Source of the DNA: Escherichia coli
GTDB lineage: Bacteria > Pseudomonadota > Gammaproteobacteria > Enterobacterales > Enterobacteriaceae
Strand: one strand, 5' to 3'
NCBI RefSeq assembly: GCF_044324875.1
Contig: NZ_CP172188.1
DNA: 64,000 nt
Shown: piece after piece, positions 513 to 63,305 of the stretch
Layout: each line of letters starts with the position of its first letter
Position numbering within the stretch: the first letter of the stretch is position 1
The notes under the pieces: generated by a model
Database searches by the model: none
What the model was told of the DNA's origin: nothing
What the model saw: the letters and a program-made list of their open reading frames with translations, nothing else
Position numbers and translations under genes: made by a program

Positions 513-538
513 GCCCCGGCCTGGCCGGGGCTTTTTTC
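513..538. terminator. rho-independent terminator hairpin GCCCCGGCCTGGCCGGGGC + T-run (bidirectional)
   Basis: Perfect GC stem followed by TTTTTT; same hairpin recurs after the other two ant copies (39597, 63314). Confidence 0.6.
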
Positions 539-1022
539 ATGCCTCATTAGTTGAGGTTGCTGCGTCTCCGACTGGTAACAGAGCGGTATTGCGTGGTTCG
601 CCAGCAGGCCAGCGATAGCCAGACACTCTTGATGTTGGGAATGCGCGAATATTAACCGCATCCCCCTGGTTCCCACCCAGGACAAGCAGATCGCCATTGG
701 CGCGGCGTCCGACAACGAAGCCTACGTGCCCACCGCCTACGCGGGTAAATACAACGATACATCCGTATGCCGGTGTATCTAATTTCTCGCCCCAATCCAG
801 ATAGGATTTTGCCGACTCAAATCTTGTTGAGCGGATGCCTACACGTTCCAGCATTGCACCGACAAATGCTGCGCACCACGGAGTTTCATCGTCTTTAATT
901 CCGCCGCGCTTGATGTCGCGCCAGAACTGAACGATTACAGGGTTGTGTTTAGCACCTTTTATTTCAGTCAGGCCAATGTGCTTACGGGCTTCAATTAGCC
1001 AGCGAGGTTCAATGTTTGCCAT
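537..1022 (-). CDS. putative cell-wall hydrolase, NlpC/P60-CHAP-like (TIGR02594-like)
   Basis: 161 aa; candidate Cys (PWCAAFVG) and His (GGGHVGFVVG) catalytic motifs; family assignment from memory. Confidence 0.45.
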   Translation of the reverse strand: MANIEPRWLIEARKHIGLTEIKGAKHNPVIVQFWRDIKRGGIKDDETPWCAAFVGAMLERVGIRSTRFESAKSYLDWGEKLDTPAYGCIVVFTRVGGGHVGFVVGRRANGDLLVLGGNQGDAVNIRAFPTSRVSGYRWPAGEPRNTALLPVGDAATSTNEA

Positions 1023-38139: not shown

Positions 38140-38430
38140 GGCATTATCGTGGGGTATATTTCTACGGCACCTTAGAAAAACGGGTGCCGGGATTGGAACC
38201 CCGGATAATGCAAAAGGCGACACAGACGCCGAAAGCGTCTTTTCTTGTGTCATGCCATCGCACAGCCATACGTAGCGTTTAGCTCAGAGATCAATGGTAG
38301 TGCTGGCTGGGCTGCCGAAAGGCAGGCCGGTTCCCTTTTGCGCCGGTAGTTCCAACCCAGTCAGTGCTACCGCCATTGAGATTGGAACCTCACGCGGTAG
38401 CTCCTTAAATTAGCAAAAGGAGGCTGCCAA
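38140..38430 (+). ncRNA. candidate c4-like antisense RNA / leader region of immunity module A
   Basis: Structured leader upstream of the icd-like gene: direct repeats GATTGGAACC (38192, 38383) and a partly complementary GTTCCAACC (38346); hairpin GACGCCGAAAGCGTC + T-run near 38223. Confidence 0.3.
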
Positions 38431-38431
38431 T

Positions 38432-38647
38432 ATGGCTACTATCCCTACCCCAACTCATTCTGAATTTATCTGGCGTTTCTATTCCTGCCAAAAACACCTG
38501 TATATCTGCGTCATGGCTGCAACCGAAGCAGAAGCTCGTTCATACCTTCCTGAAGAACCCTGCATTTTTGCCGCACGCTTCACTCTTGATGCGATGGAGA
38601 TCCTCAATTACTGGAATCTGCCAATGAACTGCGTGGAGGTGCACTGA
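38432..38647 (+). CDS. Icd-like small protein (module A)
   Basis: 71 aa; paralog of 62161..62385 (shared SEFIWRF, QKH, AATE-EARS); stop overlaps ant start (TGATG) as for icd-ant coupling in P1. Confidence 0.5.
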   Translation: MATIPTPTHSEFIWRFYSCQKHLYICVMAATEAEARSYLPEEPCIFAARFTLDAMEILNYWNLPMNCVEVH

Positions 38648-39588
38648 TGAATCTGTCCATCTCTCAAAAAGCGACAATGACCAGCATTGAGATCGCGGAA
38701 CTGGTAGGAAGTCGCCAAGATAGTGTGAAGAGAACTATCGAAACACTGGCTAAAAAGAGTGTGATCCAATTTCCACAATCTGTGGAAATTGAAAATAAAC
38801 AATCAGTTGGCCCTCGTCGATTTTCCAAGGCTTACATCTTTGAAGGCGAACAAGGCAAGCGCGATAGTATCATTGTCGTCGCACAGCTCTCTCCGGAATT
38901 CACCGCCCGGCTGGTGGACCGCTGGCGCGAACTGGAGAATGCCAGGGGACCGTTAAAATCAAAAGCCGAAATCCTGGCTGAAATGGCGCAAATGCATCTT
39001 GAGCATGAACGCCGGATCAACGCCGTAAATGCCCAGGTAGCCGAGGTATCAGCACAAGTATCGATGGTCGCTGAAACACTCGAGCAAATAAAGAAAGGCA
39101 ATATGCCGGAAGGCTACATTGGCTACCGCCAGCTGGCGGCGAAATGCGGCCTGACTGAAGCCAAATGTCGCAACCTGGTTAACGCTTACCGGATACCCAC
39201 TGATACGCATGAGTTTTTGACTCCCGACGGTTTGCTTGCGCGACGCTCAATTGTGGCCCTGGCCCCCTTCCGGAAAGCCTTTAAGCAGGTTATGTCGGAG
39301 GCAGAACCACGCAACAAACGCTGGTATCATCCAAAGATGGGGATGTTTCAGGCAATCCACCATCCTGTGCCTGAAAGTCCAAAGGCAAACCTGTCGTTGC
39401 ATACCGCCAGAGAGAGGATTAAAACAGGGTATGCAATCGTATGCCGTCGAGCATCTTGGCCTGAAGGTGTATGGGTATGGCCCGAAGGTGGATCACGAAA
39501 GCACTGGCGCACTATCCGGGATGGGAAAATCCATGCGATTGATTTAGCTCCAGAGGATGTTGTTGCTACGGACTGGATTGTTAGTTAA
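38647..39588 (+). CDS. antirepressor-like protein: Rha-family N-terminal domain fused to DUF2829/Tad2-like C-terminal domain (module A)
   Basis: 313 aa; N-terminal MTSIEIAELVGSRQDSVKRTIE; C-terminal CRRASWPEGVWVWPEGG ... DLAPEDVVATDWIVS. Confidence 0.65.
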   Translation: MNLSISQKATMTSIEIAELVGSRQDSVKRTIETLAKKSVIQFPQSVEIENKQSVGPRRFSKAYIFEGEQGKRDSIIVVAQLSPEFTARLVDRWRELENARGPLKSKAEILAEMAQMHLEHERRINAVNAQVAEVSAQVSMVAETLEQIKKGNMPEGYIGYRQLAAKCGLTEAKCRNLVNAYRIPTDTHEFLTPDGLLARRSIVALAPFRKAFKQVMSEAEPRNKRWYHPKMGMFQAIHHPVPESPKANLSLHTARERIKTGYAIVCRRASWPEGVWVWPEGGSRKHWRTIRDGKIHAIDLAPEDVVATDWIVS

Positions 39589-55315: not shown

Positions 55316-56977
55316 TTAACCTAACTTCGCCCAGGTATCACGCAGCCCAACGGTGCGGTTAAATACCGGTTTTTCCGCCGTAGAATGGCGGCTATCGAGG
55401 CAGAAGTAACCTTCACGCTCAAACTGGAATGCTTTACCCGCAACCGCATCTTTCAGCGACGGTTCAGCAAAGCCCTGTTTGATCACCAGCGATTCCGGGT
55501 TAATCACCGACAGGAAATCATCCGCAGCACCTGGGTTAGGCACGCTGAACAGACGATCGTACAGGCGGATTTCAACCGGCAGCGCATGTGCCGCGCTCAC
55601 CCAGTGAATAACGCCTTTCACTTTACGACCATCTGCCGGATCTTTGCTTAAGGTGTCGGCGTCATAAGTACAGAAGATGGTGGTGATATTGCCTTCGGCA
55701 TCTTTCTCCACGCGTTCAGCCTTAATGACGTAAGCATTACGCAGACGCACTTCTTTACCCAGCACCAGACGTTTGTACTGCTTGTTAGCTTCTTCGCGGA
55801 AATCGGCGCGGTCGATCCAAATCTCACCGCTAAACGGCACCTGACGGCTACCCATTTCCGGTTTGTTCGGATGGTTCGGCATGGTGACCATTTCGCCTTC
55901 GCCCTGGTAGTTTTCGATAACCAGTTTCACCGGATCGATAACCGCCATTGCGCGCGGCGCATTTTCGTTGAGATCTTCACGGATGCAGGATTCCAGCGAC
56001 GCCATCTCAATGGTGTTGTCCTGCTTGGTCACGCCGATGCGTTTGCAGAACTCACGAATAGAAGCCGCAGTGTAACCACGACGACGCAGACCGGAAATGG
56101 TCGGCATACGCGGGTCATCCCAGCCTTCAACGTGTTTGTCGGTCACCAGCAGGTTCAGCTTACGCTTGGACATCACGGTGTATTCCAGATTCAGGCGCGA
56201 GAATTCGTACTGGCGCGGGTGAACAGGAATGGTGATGTTGTCCAGCACCCAGTCGTACAGGCGACGGTTGTCCTGGAACTCAAGCGTACACAGAGAGTGC
56301 GTAATACCTTCCAGCGCATCGCTGATGCAATGGGTGAAGTCGTACATCGGGTAGATGCACCACTTGTTGCCAGTCTGGTGGTGTTCAGCAAATTTAATGC
56401 GGTACAGCACCGGATCGCGCATTACGATAAATGGCGACGCCATGTCGATTTTCGCACGCAGGCAGGCTTTACCTTCTTCAAAACCACCGGCACGCATTTT
56501 TTCGAACAGCGCCAGGTTCTCTTCAACGCTGCGATCGCGGTACGGGCTGTTTTTACCCGGCTGCGTCAGGGTGCCGCGGTATTCGCGGATCTGTTCCGGC
56601 GTCAGTTCGTCAACATACGCCAGGCCTTTGTTGATCAGTTCAACAGCATAGGCGTGGAGCTGATCAAAATAATCGGAGGAGTAACGGATGTTGCCAGACC
56701 AGTGAAAACCTAACCATTCAACGTCGTTTTTAATCGACTCGACGTACTCGATATCTTCTTTTACCGGGTTAGTGTCGTCGAAACGCAGGTTGCACTGGCC
56801 TTTATAGTCCTGGGCGATCCCGAAGTTCAGGCAGATAGATTTCGCATGACCAATATGCAGATAGCCATTCGGTTCCGGCGGGAAACGGGTATGTACTGTG
56901 GTGTGCTTACCACTGGCCAGATCTTCATCGATGATCTGACGAATAAAGTTAGTCGGGCGGGCTTCTGCCTCACTCAT
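55316..56977 (-). CDS. glnS: glutaminyl-tRNA synthetase
   Basis: 553 aa; class I HIGH (HIGHAKS) and KMSKS-type (VMSKRK) motifs; essentially colinear with enterobacterial GlnRS. Confidence 0.95.
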
Positions 56978-59794: not shown

Positions 59795-59890
59795 ATTGCT
59801 CCACTTCTGAGACACATTTGAGAAAGAATTGAATCTTATATGAGAAAACAAAATAAAACCAGAAGTTGAGAGAGCAAAAAGCACCAGATT

Positions 59891-59956
59891 TGAGACAAAC
59901 CAGAGACAAACCAGAGACAAACTAGAGACACACTAGAGACAAGTATGAGAAACAAG
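59891..59956. repeat. parC-like centromere: five to six tandem 11-bp iterons
   Basis: TGAGACAAACC AGAGACAAACC AGAGACAAACT AGAGACACACT AGAGACAAGTA upstream of parM. Confidence 0.65.
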
Positions 59957-60013: not shown

Positions 60014-60298
60014 ATGAGTGCAATAGCGACCTGTGACACAGTTTGTTCCGGTCATGGAGGATTCCCTCCGCGACCTGTAGCAGAAACAGTTTCCTGGTTT
60101 ACCGTAAATGGAAAGCCAGTTGTTGTAGATGGTGCCATGTTTCCCAGTCACACTGACGGTAACAGTGCACATCCAGGGGCAGCTGTATCGACGCGAGTAT
60201 GGTTTTCGATAGGTGGAAAGGGAGTTGTCTGTGTAGGCGATCCGCTTTCTTGTGGTTCTGTTATCGCCAACGGCGAGGATATTTTTCAGGTTGCATAA
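60014..60298 (+). CDS. PAAR-like spike-tip protein
   Basis: 94 aa, Cys/Gly-rich with HPGAAV and repeated G-x-V segments; my reading of the printed sequence around 60013-60061 differs from the ORF track by one base, track coordinates used. Confidence 0.45.
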   Translation: MSAIATCDTVCSGHGGFPPRPVAETVSWFTVNGKPVVVDGAMFPSHTDGNSAHPGAAVSTRVWFSIGGKGVVCVGDPLSCGSVIANGEDIFQVA

Positions 60299-61104
60299 TG
60301 CTTGATTCAATAGGTGAAGTTAAAGCCTTCAAAATTCTGTCAGATGCCGGTATCTCTACACCAGAATCTATAACCATAAGCCGGGCAGCTTCTGTAAAAG
60401 CCTCATCGCTCGCCAGCGCCATACAGGGAATAGTTCACGCCGATAAAACCTATCCTGATTCTGTTTCGGCCTGGACTACTCAATTGCTTGGCTTTTCTGA
60501 ACAGCTCAATGAGGCCAGCAAAGCGTCTTCATCACTGGCTGATTCTCTTTCCCCATACACCAAGCCATCAGAGCTGTTACAGATGAAGATTGGCTGGGAA
60601 TGCTACGCAAAAGGTAACGAGCTGACCCCCATACCTGCTTTCGCCCTTGTTGAGGGAATGGGGAATGTTTCCATTCCGCAATCTCTAACGGACGCATTGA
60701 CGGCGCTAAAACTTGATGCTCTGAAAACCGCCATGAACGCCATTAACGCAAAAATTGAAGCTGCCGGAAGTGCTGGTGGTGGTGAAAGCAATGGTGGACA
60801 GGGTGGTGCTGGGGGCGCTCAGGCTCCAGTCATTACTCAGGATGAAATTGATGCTTTACGGGAAGCAGTGACAGCCGCCGAAGTTTTACTCTCCGAAATT
60901 AACTCAGCAAGTGAGGGTGTCGTAGCCCTTACAGGTCGCATTAAAACGTCAACCACTCAGGCAACCAAAGGTTTAGAGAACGCTGTCGCCATCACGTTAA
61001 CTGGTTCTCTACTGGATGATGCAGTAATGAGTCCGGCAATCAGTTTAATCATGCCACAAGGCGTTATTGATGCGCTCCAAAAGAACACCAAAAAGGAACC
61101 ATAG
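60298..61104 (+). CDS. hypothetical protein (start at MLDSIGE, TAATG overlap with PAAR-like gene)
   Basis: ORF 60199..61104; Gly-rich linker GSAGGGESNGGQGGAGGAQAP. Confidence 0.45.
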   Translation: MLDSIGEVKAFKILSDAGISTPESITISRAASVKASSLASAIQGIVHADKTYPDSVSAWTTQLLGFSEQLNEASKASSSLADSLSPYTKPSELLQMKIGWECYAKGNELTPIPAFALVEGMGNVSIPQSLTDALTALKLDALKTAMNAINAKIEAAGSAGGGESNGGQGGAGGAQAPVITQDEIDALREAVTAAEVLLSEINSASEGVVALTGRIKTSTTQATKGLENAVAITLTGSLLDDAVMSPAISLIMPQGVIDALQKNTKKEP

Positions 61105-61159: not shown

Positions 61160-61633
61160 ATGAACCTGAAGAGGATGGTTTTGAAAAAGATAATTTTGAT
61201 TGTAATTGCGCTTTTAGCCATTTCTGGAATTTACCGAACAACGACGGCAGTTATCGAACACATCAGGTATGTCCGATCGCTTGAAGACTCAAAATCACAA
61301 CTGGAAAGCACGAACAACACGCTTTCTACCGCATTACAGTTAAGTGAGAACGCTCGCTCAGCCATGCTGACCGAAAACGAAAGAATTAAAGCACTGGAAA
61401 AGGAGTACCAGCGCAAAACAGCAGAACTGAATGCCAACCTAATCAAACAACGAGAGGAAAGCCAGAATGAAATCACTCGCCTTGAAAATGCGTTGCGCCG
61501 TGCTGGGATTAACGATGTGCGTGTGCCTGATGACGTTATCAGGATGCAGCGGGAACGGGCAAAAGCCATCAACCAGCGTGCCAGTGAAAATTACCGTAGA
61601 AGCCACCAGCAAGCCGCAGGCAAATCTGATTGA
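61160..61633 (+). CDS. i-spanin (Rz-like): N-terminal TM anchor + periplasmic coiled-coil
   Basis: ORF 61130..61633; KKIILIVIALLAISGIY then coiled-coil. Confidence 0.6.
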   Translation: MNLKRMVLKKIILIVIALLAISGIYRTTTAVIEHIRYVRSLEDSKSQLESTNNTLSTALQLSENARSAMLTENERIKALEKEYQRKTAELNANLIKQREESQNEITRLENALRRAGINDVRVPDDVIRMQRERAKAINQRASENYRRSHQQAAGKSD

Positions 61634-61793
61634 TTACTCCCCTTGTTTAGTGCCAGAGGACACGCCAGTGCTGTTAAACAAGTATCCGACATACGCTGAA
61701 CAGTTATTCAGCACGATCGACGAATGCAACCAACGAAACGCACTGAATAACCAAAGAAACAGGGAGATTTGGGAAGGGAAGGGGCGGCAGTGA
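61467..61793 (+). CDS. o-spanin (Rz1-like lipoprotein), overlapping the i-spanin in the +1 frame
   Basis: Lipobox LTMCVCLMTLSGCSG; starts inside the i-spanin gene and extends past its stop. Confidence 0.6.
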   Translation: MKSLALKMRCAVLGLTMCVCLMTLSGCSGNGQKPSTSVPVKITVEATSKPQANLIDYSPCLVPEDTPVLLNKYPTYAEQLFSTIDECNQRNALNNQRNREIWEGKGRQ

Positions 61794-61820
61794 GCTTCAC
61801 AAAATCTATATAGCTATTTT

Positions 61821-61838
61821 ATGTTAGAAAAATAATTT
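61821..61838 (+). promoter_or_regulatory. operator-like motif copy (ATGTTAGAAAAATAATTT), candidate control site of immunity module B
   Basis: Consensus copy ~100 nt upstream of the c4-like leader. Confidence 0.5.
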
Positions 61839-61899
61839 GAATTTTCGAACATAAACAATAAAATAAATCATCAAAAATTTGATGTTGATCTTCCATGTT

Positions 61900-62160
61900 T
61901 TCAGGCTTATATTCACGCCGTTGCAGCAAATTCTGCGACCGGGTTTAGCAGCCTGAATGTACATGCGGACAACCGCAGATATCCGATATTGCGGTATTTT
62001 TGTGTCCGTAAAACCATGTTACGCCCGAATTATGGTGGGGCGTGATGGGGAGGCTTCGGCCTGCTGGTTTCATGTACGCCAGTCTGCTAACCCCGTCACG
62101 TCCTGCCACCCGTTTAGCAGCGGGTAGCAGGTTGTTAAACCTGTACATGAGGCCGTAACT
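61900..62160 (+). ncRNA. candidate c4-like antisense RNA locus of immunity module B
   Basis: Paired elements a=TTTAGCAG and b=GTACATG occur at 61945/61958 and again at 62112/62141; complements (CATGTAC at 62066, CTGCTAA at 62085) lie between in reversed order. Confidence 0.35.
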
Positions 62161-62385
62161 ATGGTTAATGCCAATCCTTGCTCACGTCCAGAATTCATCT
62201 GGCGTTTTCACTCCCTGCAAAAACACTGCGATCACTTCGCAATTGCCGCAACTGAAAAAGAAGCCCGTTCTCTGATCCCTGATCAGTATGGTGTTCTTAC
62301 TGGTCGTTTCTCTACTTCCCCACAACCAAACACTAATCCCTGGTATCGCAATATTACCAATCCCGGAATTGCGGAGGCACACTGA
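62161..62385 (+). CDS. Icd-like small protein (module B)
   Basis: 74 aa; paralog of 38432..38647; stop overlaps ant start (TGATG). Confidence 0.5.
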   Translation: MVNANPCSRPEFIWRFHSLQKHCDHFAIAATEKEARSLIPDQYGVLTGRFSTSPQPNTNPWYRNITNPGIAEAH

Positions 62386-63305
62386 TGGATATCTGCATTC
62401 TTGAAAAGCCATCAATGACCAGCATTGAGATCGCGGAGCTGGTGGGAAGTCGTCCAGATAACGTAAAAATATCAATAGAGCGCCTGGCTAAATCTGGAGT
62501 TATTCAACTTCCTGCATTGCAGGTTTTCGAAAAAATCAATAACTTAGGACTACGCCGTAGTGTCGAGGCTTACGTCTTCGAAGGCGAGCAAGGCAAACGA
62601 GACAGCATTATTGTCGTTGCGCAGCTCTCTCCCGAATTCACCGCCCGGCTGGTGGACCGCTGGCGCGAACTGGAAGAACAAGTACGCCAGCCGTTGACCG
62701 AAATAGAGATGATCGCCGCAATGGCTGCAAATGCAGTTCAGCAGCAAAAGCGGCTTCATGTTGTTGAGTCAAAGGTTAGCCAGGTTGCTGAAACCGTCGA
62801 GCAGATCAAGAAGGGCAACATGCCAGAAGGTTACATTGGCTACCGCCAGCTGGCGGCGAAATGTGGCCTGACTGAAGCCAAATGTCGCAACCTGGTTAAC
62901 GCTTTCCGGATTCCCACCGATACGCATGAGTTTTTAACTCCAGATGGTTTGCTTGCGCGACGCTCCATTGTGGCCCTGGCCCCCTTCCGGAAAGCCTTTA
63001 AGCAGGTGATGTCGGAGGCAGAACCACGCAACAAACGCTGGTATCATCCGAAGATGGGGCTGTTTCAGGCAATCCATCATCCTGTGCCTGAAAGCCCAAA
63101 GGATAATCTGTCACTACATACCGTCAGAGAGAAGATCAGGACTGGATACGCAACAGTGTGTCGTCGTTCTTCCTGGCCTGAAGGTATATGGGTGTGGCCC
63201 GAAGGTGGATCACGAAAGCACTGGCGCACTATCCGGGACGGGAAAATCCATGCTATTGATTTAGCGCCAGAGGATATTGTTGCTACGGACTGGATTGTTA
63301 GTTAA
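62385..63305 (+). CDS. antirepressor-like protein: Rha-family N-terminal domain fused to DUF2829/Tad2-like domain (module B)
   Basis: 306 aa; N-terminal 60 aa and middle linker differ from module A, C-terminal 200 aa nearly identical. Confidence 0.65.
   Translation: MDICILEKPSMTSIEIAELVGSRPDNVKISIERLAKSGVIQLPALQVFEKINNLGLRRSVEAYVFEGEQGKRDSIIVVAQLSPEFTARLVDRWRELEEQVRQPLTEIEMIAAMAANAVQQQKRLHVVESKVSQVAETVEQIKKGNMPEGYIGYRQLAAKCGLTEAKCRNLVNAFRIPTDTHEFLTPDGLLARRSIVALAPFRKAFKQVMSEAEPRNKRWYHPKMGLFQAIHHPVPESPKDNLSLHTVREKIRTGYATVCRRSSWPEGIWVWPEGGSRKHWRTIRDGKIHAIDLAPEDIVATDWIVS

Follow-up and report, generated by a model that had tools for sequence, protein, structure and literature searches.

An overlapped gene pair predicted to encode a two-component spanin in a D6-like phage-plasmid of the P1 family

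Near one end of the analyzed DNA of Escherichia coli, two partly overlapping open reading frames raise the question of whether they form an i-spanin/o-spanin pair and, if so, whether this pair points to a lysis module. The window, i.e., the whole stretch of DNA that was analyzed, is 64,000 nucleotides long. The segment carrying the two genes was found to share 99.1% nucleotide identity with Escherichia phage D6, a plasmid prophage of the P1 family, and 121–123 PLSDB plasmids from Escherichia, Salmonella, Shigella and Enterobacter matched it. In addition, a comparison with 5,426 complete genomes of E. coli revealed the pair in 100, on a plasmid each time. Judging by sequence comparison, the source of the window is a D6-like phage-plasmid of the P1 family. 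The two genes and their overlap are located as follows:

61181–61633, + strand: i-spanin gene, 150 aa from a conserved TTG start, supported by PHROG matches, dN/dS and AlphaFold2 helices
61467–61793, + strand: o-spanin gene, encoding a 108-aa precursor and an 82-aa mature protein starting from Cys27
61467–61633, + strand: dual-coding overlap of 167 nt, encoding the C-terminal 55 residues of the i-spanin together with the o-spanin signal peptide, its lipobox and the initial 29 residues of the mature protein

The pair is very probably a two-component overlapped spanin of a D6-like phage-plasmid of the P1 family and a diverged orthologue of the P1 genes ppfA and mlp. We infer its spanin function from architecture, homology and synteny. 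The original prediction had described an overlapped i-spanin/o-spanin pair and called it expected biology; both statements hold, since both frames are open and selected, the proteins match PHROG spanin families, and the synteny and register are those of P1 ppfA/mlp. Thus, it appears to be an ordinary overlapped spanin, orthologous to the P1 pair. The i-spanin matched phrog_214 (7.6e-16) and phrog_89 (1.8e-7), and the o-spanin matched phrog_456 (2.6e-5) and phrog_30284 (6.8e-4), the latter being the P1 Mlp family; all of these are designated 'Rz-like spanin'. The Enterobacter homologue of the o-spanin matched phrog_30284 at 5.4e-8. Neither protein matched any Pfam family at E ≤ 0.01, the lambda-type Rz/Rz1 models included.

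In the P1 genome, ppfA (140 aa, P1_gp064) and mlp (110 aa, P1_gp063), which are predicted spanin genes, are located in the order upfC-upfB-ppfA-mlp, and the order upfC-upfB-pair is common to P1, D6, the window and related plasmids. The mlp gene lies in the +1 frame relative to ppfA with an overlap of 167 nt as annotated, the same as in the window pair. P1 Mlp and the window o-spanin have 31% identity (E = 1e-8) and share LTLSGCSG and C-x-x-P-E, while PpfA and the window i-spanin have 21% identity end-to-end (E = 0.039) and share A-G...P-x-D-x-x-R-x-x-R-E. PpfA also matched phrog_89 (5e-25) and phrog_214 (6e-5), both of which were matched by the window i-spanin. A tblastn search with both window proteins against 50,697 phage records (E ≤ 1e-3) revealed D6 alone and no P1 match; the homology with P1 rests on synteny, pairwise BLASTP and PHROG profiles. 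The codons of the window lipobox overlie V-I-R-M-Q of the conserved i-frame motif PDDVIRMQRE, and the P1 lipobox overlies TQRLL of PpfA (PADTQRLLRE), i.e., the same alignment columns. Since the same aligned i-spanin motif lies under the lipobox in both phages, the window pair and P1 ppfA/mlp are, by this comparison, diverged orthologues; the retained lipobox register also argues that the two genes were inherited as an overlapped unit while their proteins diverged. The pairs differ in the length of the anchor (15 residues in the window i-spanin and 20 in PpfA, the first helix being longer in the window protein), in the number of periplasmic cysteine residues (two in the window o-spanin and one in Mlp), in the position of the lipobox cysteine (27 and 40, respectively) and in the downstream neighbor (an immI module in the window and upfA in P1). 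The window/D6 pair and the P1 pair are alike in being unlinked to holin and endolysin genes.

The surroundings of the pair in the window include the following features:

60014–60298, + strand: PAAR/UpfC-like gene, directly upstream of and co-oriented with the spanin pair
60298–61104, + strand: UpfB-like gene, between the PAAR/UpfC-like gene and the spanin pair and co-oriented with them
61907–61959: c4-a1b1 of an immI-type module, downstream
62028–62113: C4 RNA of the immI-type module, downstream
62161–62385: ORF in the icd position of the immI-type module, downstream
62385–63305: Ant/Rha-like ORF of the immI-type module, downstream
537–1022, − strand: CHAP-domain hydrolase gene, counterpart of D6_16, 60 kb from the spanin pair

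Farther upstream, on the opposite strand, the partition genes stbA/parM and stbB are located. The CHAP hydrolase gene is the sole other lysis-type gene within the window, and in the D6 map the holin/antiholin genes lydA/lydB lie ~24 kb from the spanin pair, which places them beyond the window. Location in a lysis cassette is typical of two-component spanins but is not obligatory. A location together with holin and endolysin genes was not found here, the neighbors being the PAAR and UpfB genes, stbA/B and the immI module. No neighbor of the pair is a lysis gene, and the proposal that it serves as a marker for the lysis module is therefore incorrect. The lysis genes of the D6-like element are dispersed, as in P1. 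The PAAR/UpfC-like and UpfB-like genes probably share a transcription unit with the spanin pair. A sigma-70 scan revealed zero sites 5' of either the PAAR gene or the spanin pair, or between the upstream genes and the pair, and a scan for terminator-like sites found none directly past the o-spanin stop codon. The P1-type late-promoter pattern taken from the annotated LP23 (AAGTGACTT-N4-TANNNT, with no more than two mismatches) gave 6 matches versus 4.6 expected, with zero matches near the operon.

This setting allows another reading, in which both genes encode real envelope proteins that serve superinfection exclusion, lysogenic conversion (of the Cor, Llp or Bor type) or a function linked to PAAR/UpfB and the tail tip, and not lysis. 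The pair is strung together with the PAAR and UpfB genes far from the holin and hydrolase genes, and no late promoter was found for it. In P1, CRISPRi knock-down of mlp and ppfA did not reduce plating, and lambda Rz scored as essential in the same study (PMC10695390). Spanin function in the P1/D6 lineage is itself a prediction, ppfA and mlp being described as the predicted spanin genes of P1, of unverified function and in an unlinked operon (PMC9025707, citing Summer et al. 2007). However, lysis in shaken laboratory cultures can proceed without spanins, and a scattered layout of lysis genes is normal for P1 (PMC9025707); a lipoprotein gene in the +1 frame overlapping the gene of a type II helical membrane protein is a spanin signature, and both proteins match several PHROG spanin families. 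A non-lysis role of the two envelope proteins therefore seems unlikely. We consider it quite improbable, too, that the P1/D6-type pair is not, or not only, a lysis spanin and takes part in another envelope step, e.g., phage exclusion or entry assistance; such a non-lysis or additional role is suggested because the pair travels with PAAR-UpfB and not with holin/endolysin genes and because its P1 counterparts are dispensable for plating. Note that the plating of the P1 knock-downs, the absence of an adjacent holin or endolysin gene and the promoter scans weigh against the spanin reading as a whole.

As for the upstream gene of the predicted spanin pair, two features are important for its start and membrane topology:

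61168–61175, + strand: Shine–Dalgarno-like sequence GAAGAGGA, 6 nt 5' of TTG 61181
61190–61234, + strand: codons of the hydrophobic anchor, IILIVIALLAISGIY, 15 uncharged residues with KK before and R after

The i-frame ORF contains 150–157 codons and ends with the stop codon at 61633; its in-frame start codons are ATG 61130, ATG 61160, ATG 61175 and TTG 61181. None of the three ATG codons is conserved, and those at 61160 and 61175 are missing from several homologues. GAGG or GGAGG was found 6 nt 5' of a TTG or GTG codon at the position of 61181 in 8/8 loci, including the Enterobacter plasmid, and D6 orf55 is annotated from the TTG equivalent to 61181. Thus, the i-spanin start initially placed at 61160 should be moved to the conserved TTG 61181 with its Shine–Dalgarno sequence. 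From this codon, the N-terminus of the protein reads MKKIILIVIALLAISGIYRTTT... The hydropathy of the anchor peaks at 2.9, and its length and flanks are conserved among the homologues. The part of the protein past the anchor comprises 133 polar residues, is rich in Arg, Glu and Ala and contains zero cysteine residues. The small residues of a signal peptidase I site are not conserved (S is changed to Y in L009, and L008 has FAG). The N-terminus is therefore predicted to be a signal-anchor with an N-in/C-out orientation, and the proposed membrane anchoring of the i-spanin is supported by the uncharged stretch, its conserved KK/R flanks and the unconserved signal peptidase I motif, with the note that a stretch of 15 residues is short.

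Alternatively, the upstream protein could be released into the periplasm after cleavage of a Sec signal peptide, without a membrane anchor, and then the pair could not bridge the two membranes. The original P1 label 'possible periplasmic function' would agree with this, and the 15-residue stretch ends with A-I-S-G, which looks like a signal peptidase I site. However, the small residues at −3/−1 vary among the homologues (AIY in L009, FAG in L008, ACF in P0022), the corresponding stretch of P1 PpfA is 20 residues long, and in the AlphaFold2 model one unbroken helix runs from the anchor into the periplasmic domain. A secreted protein is very unlikely here, and the signal-anchor of an i-spanin is retained as the preferred reading.

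Modeling of the i-spanin using AlphaFold2, based on an alignment of 7 seq­uences led to a model with helices at residues 2–109 and 119–149 and a break at residues 110–118 (AGINDVRVP), with a mean pLDDT of 84.8. In the model, the anchor is followed by ~90 helical residues, the break of 9 residues and another helix of ~30 residues. This layout matches that of lambda Rz, in which a linker connects two helical segments (PMC6139136). In a heptad register, L/I/V/M/A/Y residues occupied 14/26 a/d positions, and 50/500 shuffled sequences reached the best-window score in this crude test. A profile search against the PDB revealed weak coiled-coil look-alikes, with ZapB at E = 0.0075. Of the coiled-coil i-spanin that had been proposed, the long helices are well supported by the model, but the coiled coil is not established, the crude heptad test being suggestive but not significant. 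More than 120 i-spanins are known to be without a coiled-coil prediction (Kongari et al., PMC6139136).

The downstream gene contains two features that define it as a putative lipoprotein gene:

61452–61458, + strand: Shine–Dalgarno-like sequence GAGAGGA, 9 nt 5' of the o-spanin ATG, within i-spanin codons
61536–61547, + strand: lipobox TTA TCA GGA TGC (L-S-G-C), residues 24–27, with Cys27 predicted to be lipidated and Ser at +2

The ATG codon of the o-spanin is kept in all loci, and GAGG, GGAGG or AGGAG is located upstream of it in 8/8 loci. The N-terminus of the protein, MKSLALKMRCAVLGLTMCVCLMTLSG|CSGNG, contains a basic n-region (K2, K7), an uncharged h-region and the lipobox L-S-G-C. It satisfies both the [LVI][ASTVI][GAS]C consensus and a PROSITE PS51257-type rule (the 6 residues preceding the box uncharged, Cys at position 15–35, K/R in the first 7 residues). 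LSGC and the following SG are invariant in the alignment of homologues, P1 Mlp included. Thus, the predicted LSGC lipobox is upheld. At +2, all close homologues have Ser and a single distant relative has Asn; Asp never occurs there. In Lol sorting, lipoproteins with no Asp at +2 go to the outer membrane. The mature o-spanin contains two conserved cysteine residues, C60 and C87, and its combination with a cysteine-free i-spanin (0 and 2) is the most frequent cysteine pattern in a catalogue of 526 spanins (PMC6139136). An AlphaFold2 construct in which the periplasmic part of the i-spanin was fused through a linker to the mature o-spanin was used for secondary structure only. In this construct, the first ~26 residues of the mature o-spanin were disordered (pLDDT <50), the last ~35 were helical (pLDDT 71–86), and the helix-break-helix pattern of the i-spanin was repeated.

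Relative to the i-spanin ORF, the o-spanin ORF is shifted to the +1 frame ((61467 − 61160) mod 3 = 1) and runs 160 nt past the i-spanin stop codon. Together with the 167-nt overlap, this agrees with the original prediction of a lipoprotein ORF beginning within the i-spanin gene and continuing past its stop codon. Homologous loci from the phage D6 and seven plasmids (93% to ~70% nucleotide identity) were compared; one locus, L010 (pSa1423-90k), was left out, as it has frameshifts throughout the region and is probably of low sequence quality. Both frames were open over their full length in 7/7 non-degraded homologues, including the Enterobacter plasmid copy, the nucleotide identity of which is 44–72% per segment. 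The dN/dS values were estimated for the window against four plasmid homologues with 77–94% nucleotide identity. In the i-only segment, dN/dS was 0.18–0.22 for the i frame and 0.96–4.6 for the other two frames; in the o-only segment, it was 0.06–0.22 for the o frame and 0.4–3.7 for the other two frames. Relative to L005, the nucleotide identity was 0.90 in the overlap and 0.83 and 0.77 in the flanks, and dS in the two overlap frames was ~0.2, compared with 0.52 and 1.9 in the flanks. The raised identity and lowered dS of the overlap are a dual-coding signature, and therefore the lipoprotein ORF is regarded as a real gene. By these comparisons, both frames are intact and under purifying selection in homologues down to ~50% protein identity. 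That the +1-frame ORF is a chance open frame and no gene, as its absence from the inspected RefSeq PGAP records, the shortened D6 version without a signal peptide and the small number of protein clusters might suggest, is effectively refuted by its own-frame dN/dS beyond the overlap, by the frame, ATG, Shine–Dalgarno sequence, lipobox and two cysteine residues kept to ~51% protein identity, by the recognizable similarity reaching as far as P1 Mlp and by the documented fact that overlapped o-spanins routinely escape gene callers (PMC6139136).

If the pair acts as a spanin, the i-spanin and the o-spanin would be made from one mRNA, probably together with the upstream PAAR and UpfB genes. The i-spanin would be inserted in the inner membrane with its N-terminus in and its C-terminus out, and the o-spanin would be exported, lipidated at Cys27 and cut by signal peptidase II. 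The Lol system would then carry the o-spanin to the inner leaflet of the outer membrane, a destination predicted because there is no Asp at +2. A disordered tether of ~26 residues rich in Ser, Thr and Pro, followed by the C-terminal part with the two cysteine residues and the predicted helix, could reach the C-terminal region of the i-spanin. The complex, bound by the C-terminal parts of both proteins, would cross the periplasm through the murein mesh. Once a LydA-like holin, whose gene lies beyond the window, and a peptidoglycan hydrolase have destroyed the wall, the freed complexes may collapse and fuse the inner and outer membranes, so that the last barrier to release would be gone.

The closest relative of the pair is orf55/orf54 of the phage D6 (MF356679), the locus having 99.1% nucleotide identity, with the i-spanin 100% and the o-spanin 98% identical. 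D6 orf54 is annotated from a GTG corresponding to window position 61578, and the signal peptide and lipobox are thereby lost. Homology with D6 stops at window position 61784; the o-spanin ends with ...GRQ* in the window and with ...GDQGS* in D6, and different genes follow downstream. The prototype of overlapped spanins is LysB/LysC of the phage P2. There, the o-spanin gene begins within the i-spanin gene in the +1 frame and continues past its end, and the pair is part of the lysis cassette. The window pair shares this architecture but, unlike the P2 pair, is not located in a lysis cassette. Lambda Rz/Rz1 belongs to the same functional class, in which a helical type II protein of the inner membrane is paired with an outer-membrane lipoprotein encoded in the +1 frame. 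However, Rz1 is wholly embedded in Rz and the two genes adjoin S and R, whereas the window o-spanin gene is overlapped and not embedded. Mature Rz1 has ~40 aa, ~25% Pro and no predicted structure, whereas the mature window o-spanin has 82 aa, 9% Pro and a predicted C-terminal helix. Lambda Rz contains periplasmic cysteine and the window i-spanin does not. The cysteine pattern of T4 PseT.3/PseT.2 (0 and 2) is the same as that of the window pair, but the T4 genes are separated and the window genes overlap. The long, low-proline o-spanin, the 15-residue anchor, the absence of a Pfam match and the heptad test were also counted against the spanin reading.

A search of 5.8 billion proteins with the i-spanin revealed 18 clusters, mostly 81–100% identical and a few at 48–49%; nearly all of them are named 'hypothetical', and 'Lysis protein' occurs once as a UniRef name. 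The o-spanin search revealed 6 clusters, and a profile search of 1.84 billion representatives revealed 26. Many of the profile matches are N-terminally truncated gene calls, and the full-length ones contain LSGC and the conserved cysteine motifs. The lipobox, Ser at +2 and the two cysteine residues are kept out to the Enterobacter and metagenomic relatives. Two profile matches, P0028 (a 1142-aa repeat protein) and P0025 (a PpfA::Mlp fusion ORF), are artefacts by their sequences. The o-spanin gene was left out by RefSeq PGAP in every record inspected, and in the GenBank record of D6 both genes are 'hypothetical' and spanins are not mentioned. The missing or shortened o-spanin annotation is an example of the gene-caller bias described by Kongari et al. 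(PMC6139136). Among the papers searched, none tied D6-like elements to spanins.

The main value of the locus is therefore in annotation: the pair is labeled 'hypothetical', and the lipoprotein gene is missing (RefSeq PGAP) or cut (D6 orf54). Recognition of the predicted spanin would complete the lysis set of the D6 group by adding it to the holin/antiholin and the CHAP hydrolase. The locus also shows that the linkage of upfC-upfB with the predicted spanin genes, as well as the scattering of lysis genes seen in P1, is ancestral to the P1/D6 group. The pair is also a clean example of an overlap register kept while both proteins diverged to 21–31% identity. The current understanding of spanins is unchanged by it, as this is ordinary biology. 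An antisense ORF at 61231–61572 (113 aa) was dismissed as the usual stop-poor antisense frame of a gene rich in Glu, Lys and Leu codons.

The 3' end of the predicted o-spanin gene (61467–61793, plus strand), which overlaps the i-spanin gene (61181–61633, plus strand), is a mosaic recombination junction (61784–61793). The homology of the window to Escherichia phage D6 (MF356679) and to approximately 110 of the 121 PLSDB plasmids matching the spanin locus ends at position 61784, within the final three codons of the o-spanin gene, and the sequence downstream of the junction is common to approximately 11 plasmids. The o-spanin C-terminus is ...EGKGRQ* in the window, whereas that of the D6 type is ...EGKGDQGS*.

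On its 3' side, the o-spanin stop codon is directly abutted by an immI-type immunity module (61796–63305), which D6 does not contain at the corresponding position. The following features were found in this module:

61796–61913, three sigma-70-like sites
61907–61959, c4-a1b1 targets (Rfam)
62028–62113, C4 antisense RNA (71.7 bits)
62161–62385, 74-aa ORF in the icd position, matching no Pfam family
62385–63305, Ant/Rha-like ORF

A further immI-like unit was revealed at 38167–39588, which brings the number of C4 loci of the element in the window to at least two. This unit includes:

38167–38245, isrK-type RNA
38290–38377, C4 antisense RNA (76.7 bits)
38647–39588, 313-aa ORF, probably the counterpart of the D6_82 anti-repressor

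PAAR/UpfC-like and UpfB-like genes constantly accompany the spanin pair, in P1 and D6 as well as in related plasmids. The products of these two genes in the window are:

within 60014–61104, UpfC-like PAAR-motif protein, 94 aa (Pfam PAAR_motif, 28 bits; phrog_281)
within 60014–61104, UpfB-like protein of a function-unknown family, 268 aa (phrog_1559)

The PAAR gene is separated from the stbA/parM gene (minus strand) by about five 11-bp tandem repeats (CCAGAGACAAA / CTAGAGACAMA; 59890–59945), which resemble a centromere of the parC type together with the promoter of the StbA/StbB partition system.

Among the representative proteins, the profile search also matched P0025, a 193-aa predicted protein on a P1-like contig, in which the N-terminal 85 residues of PpfA, the P1 i-spanin counterpart, are fused in frame to full-length Mlp, the o-spanin counterpart; on reading its sequence, this match was judged an artefact.

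Two other ORFs of the window have D6 counterparts:

537–1022, minus strand, CHAP-domain peptidoglycan hydrolase, 161 aa (D6_16 counterpart)
55316–56977, minus strand, 553-aa ORF (D6_62 counterpart by position)

The CHAP-domain protein, in which no signal or SAR sequence was found, had its best match in the C-terminal portion of a baseplate-hub/tail-lysozyme PHROG, its matches to endolysin PHROGs being only weak; it is a candidate endolysin or else a virion-associated enzyme. D6_62 is annotated as a glutaminyl-tRNA synthetase in the D6 record, which already notes this unusual phage-plasmid cargo.
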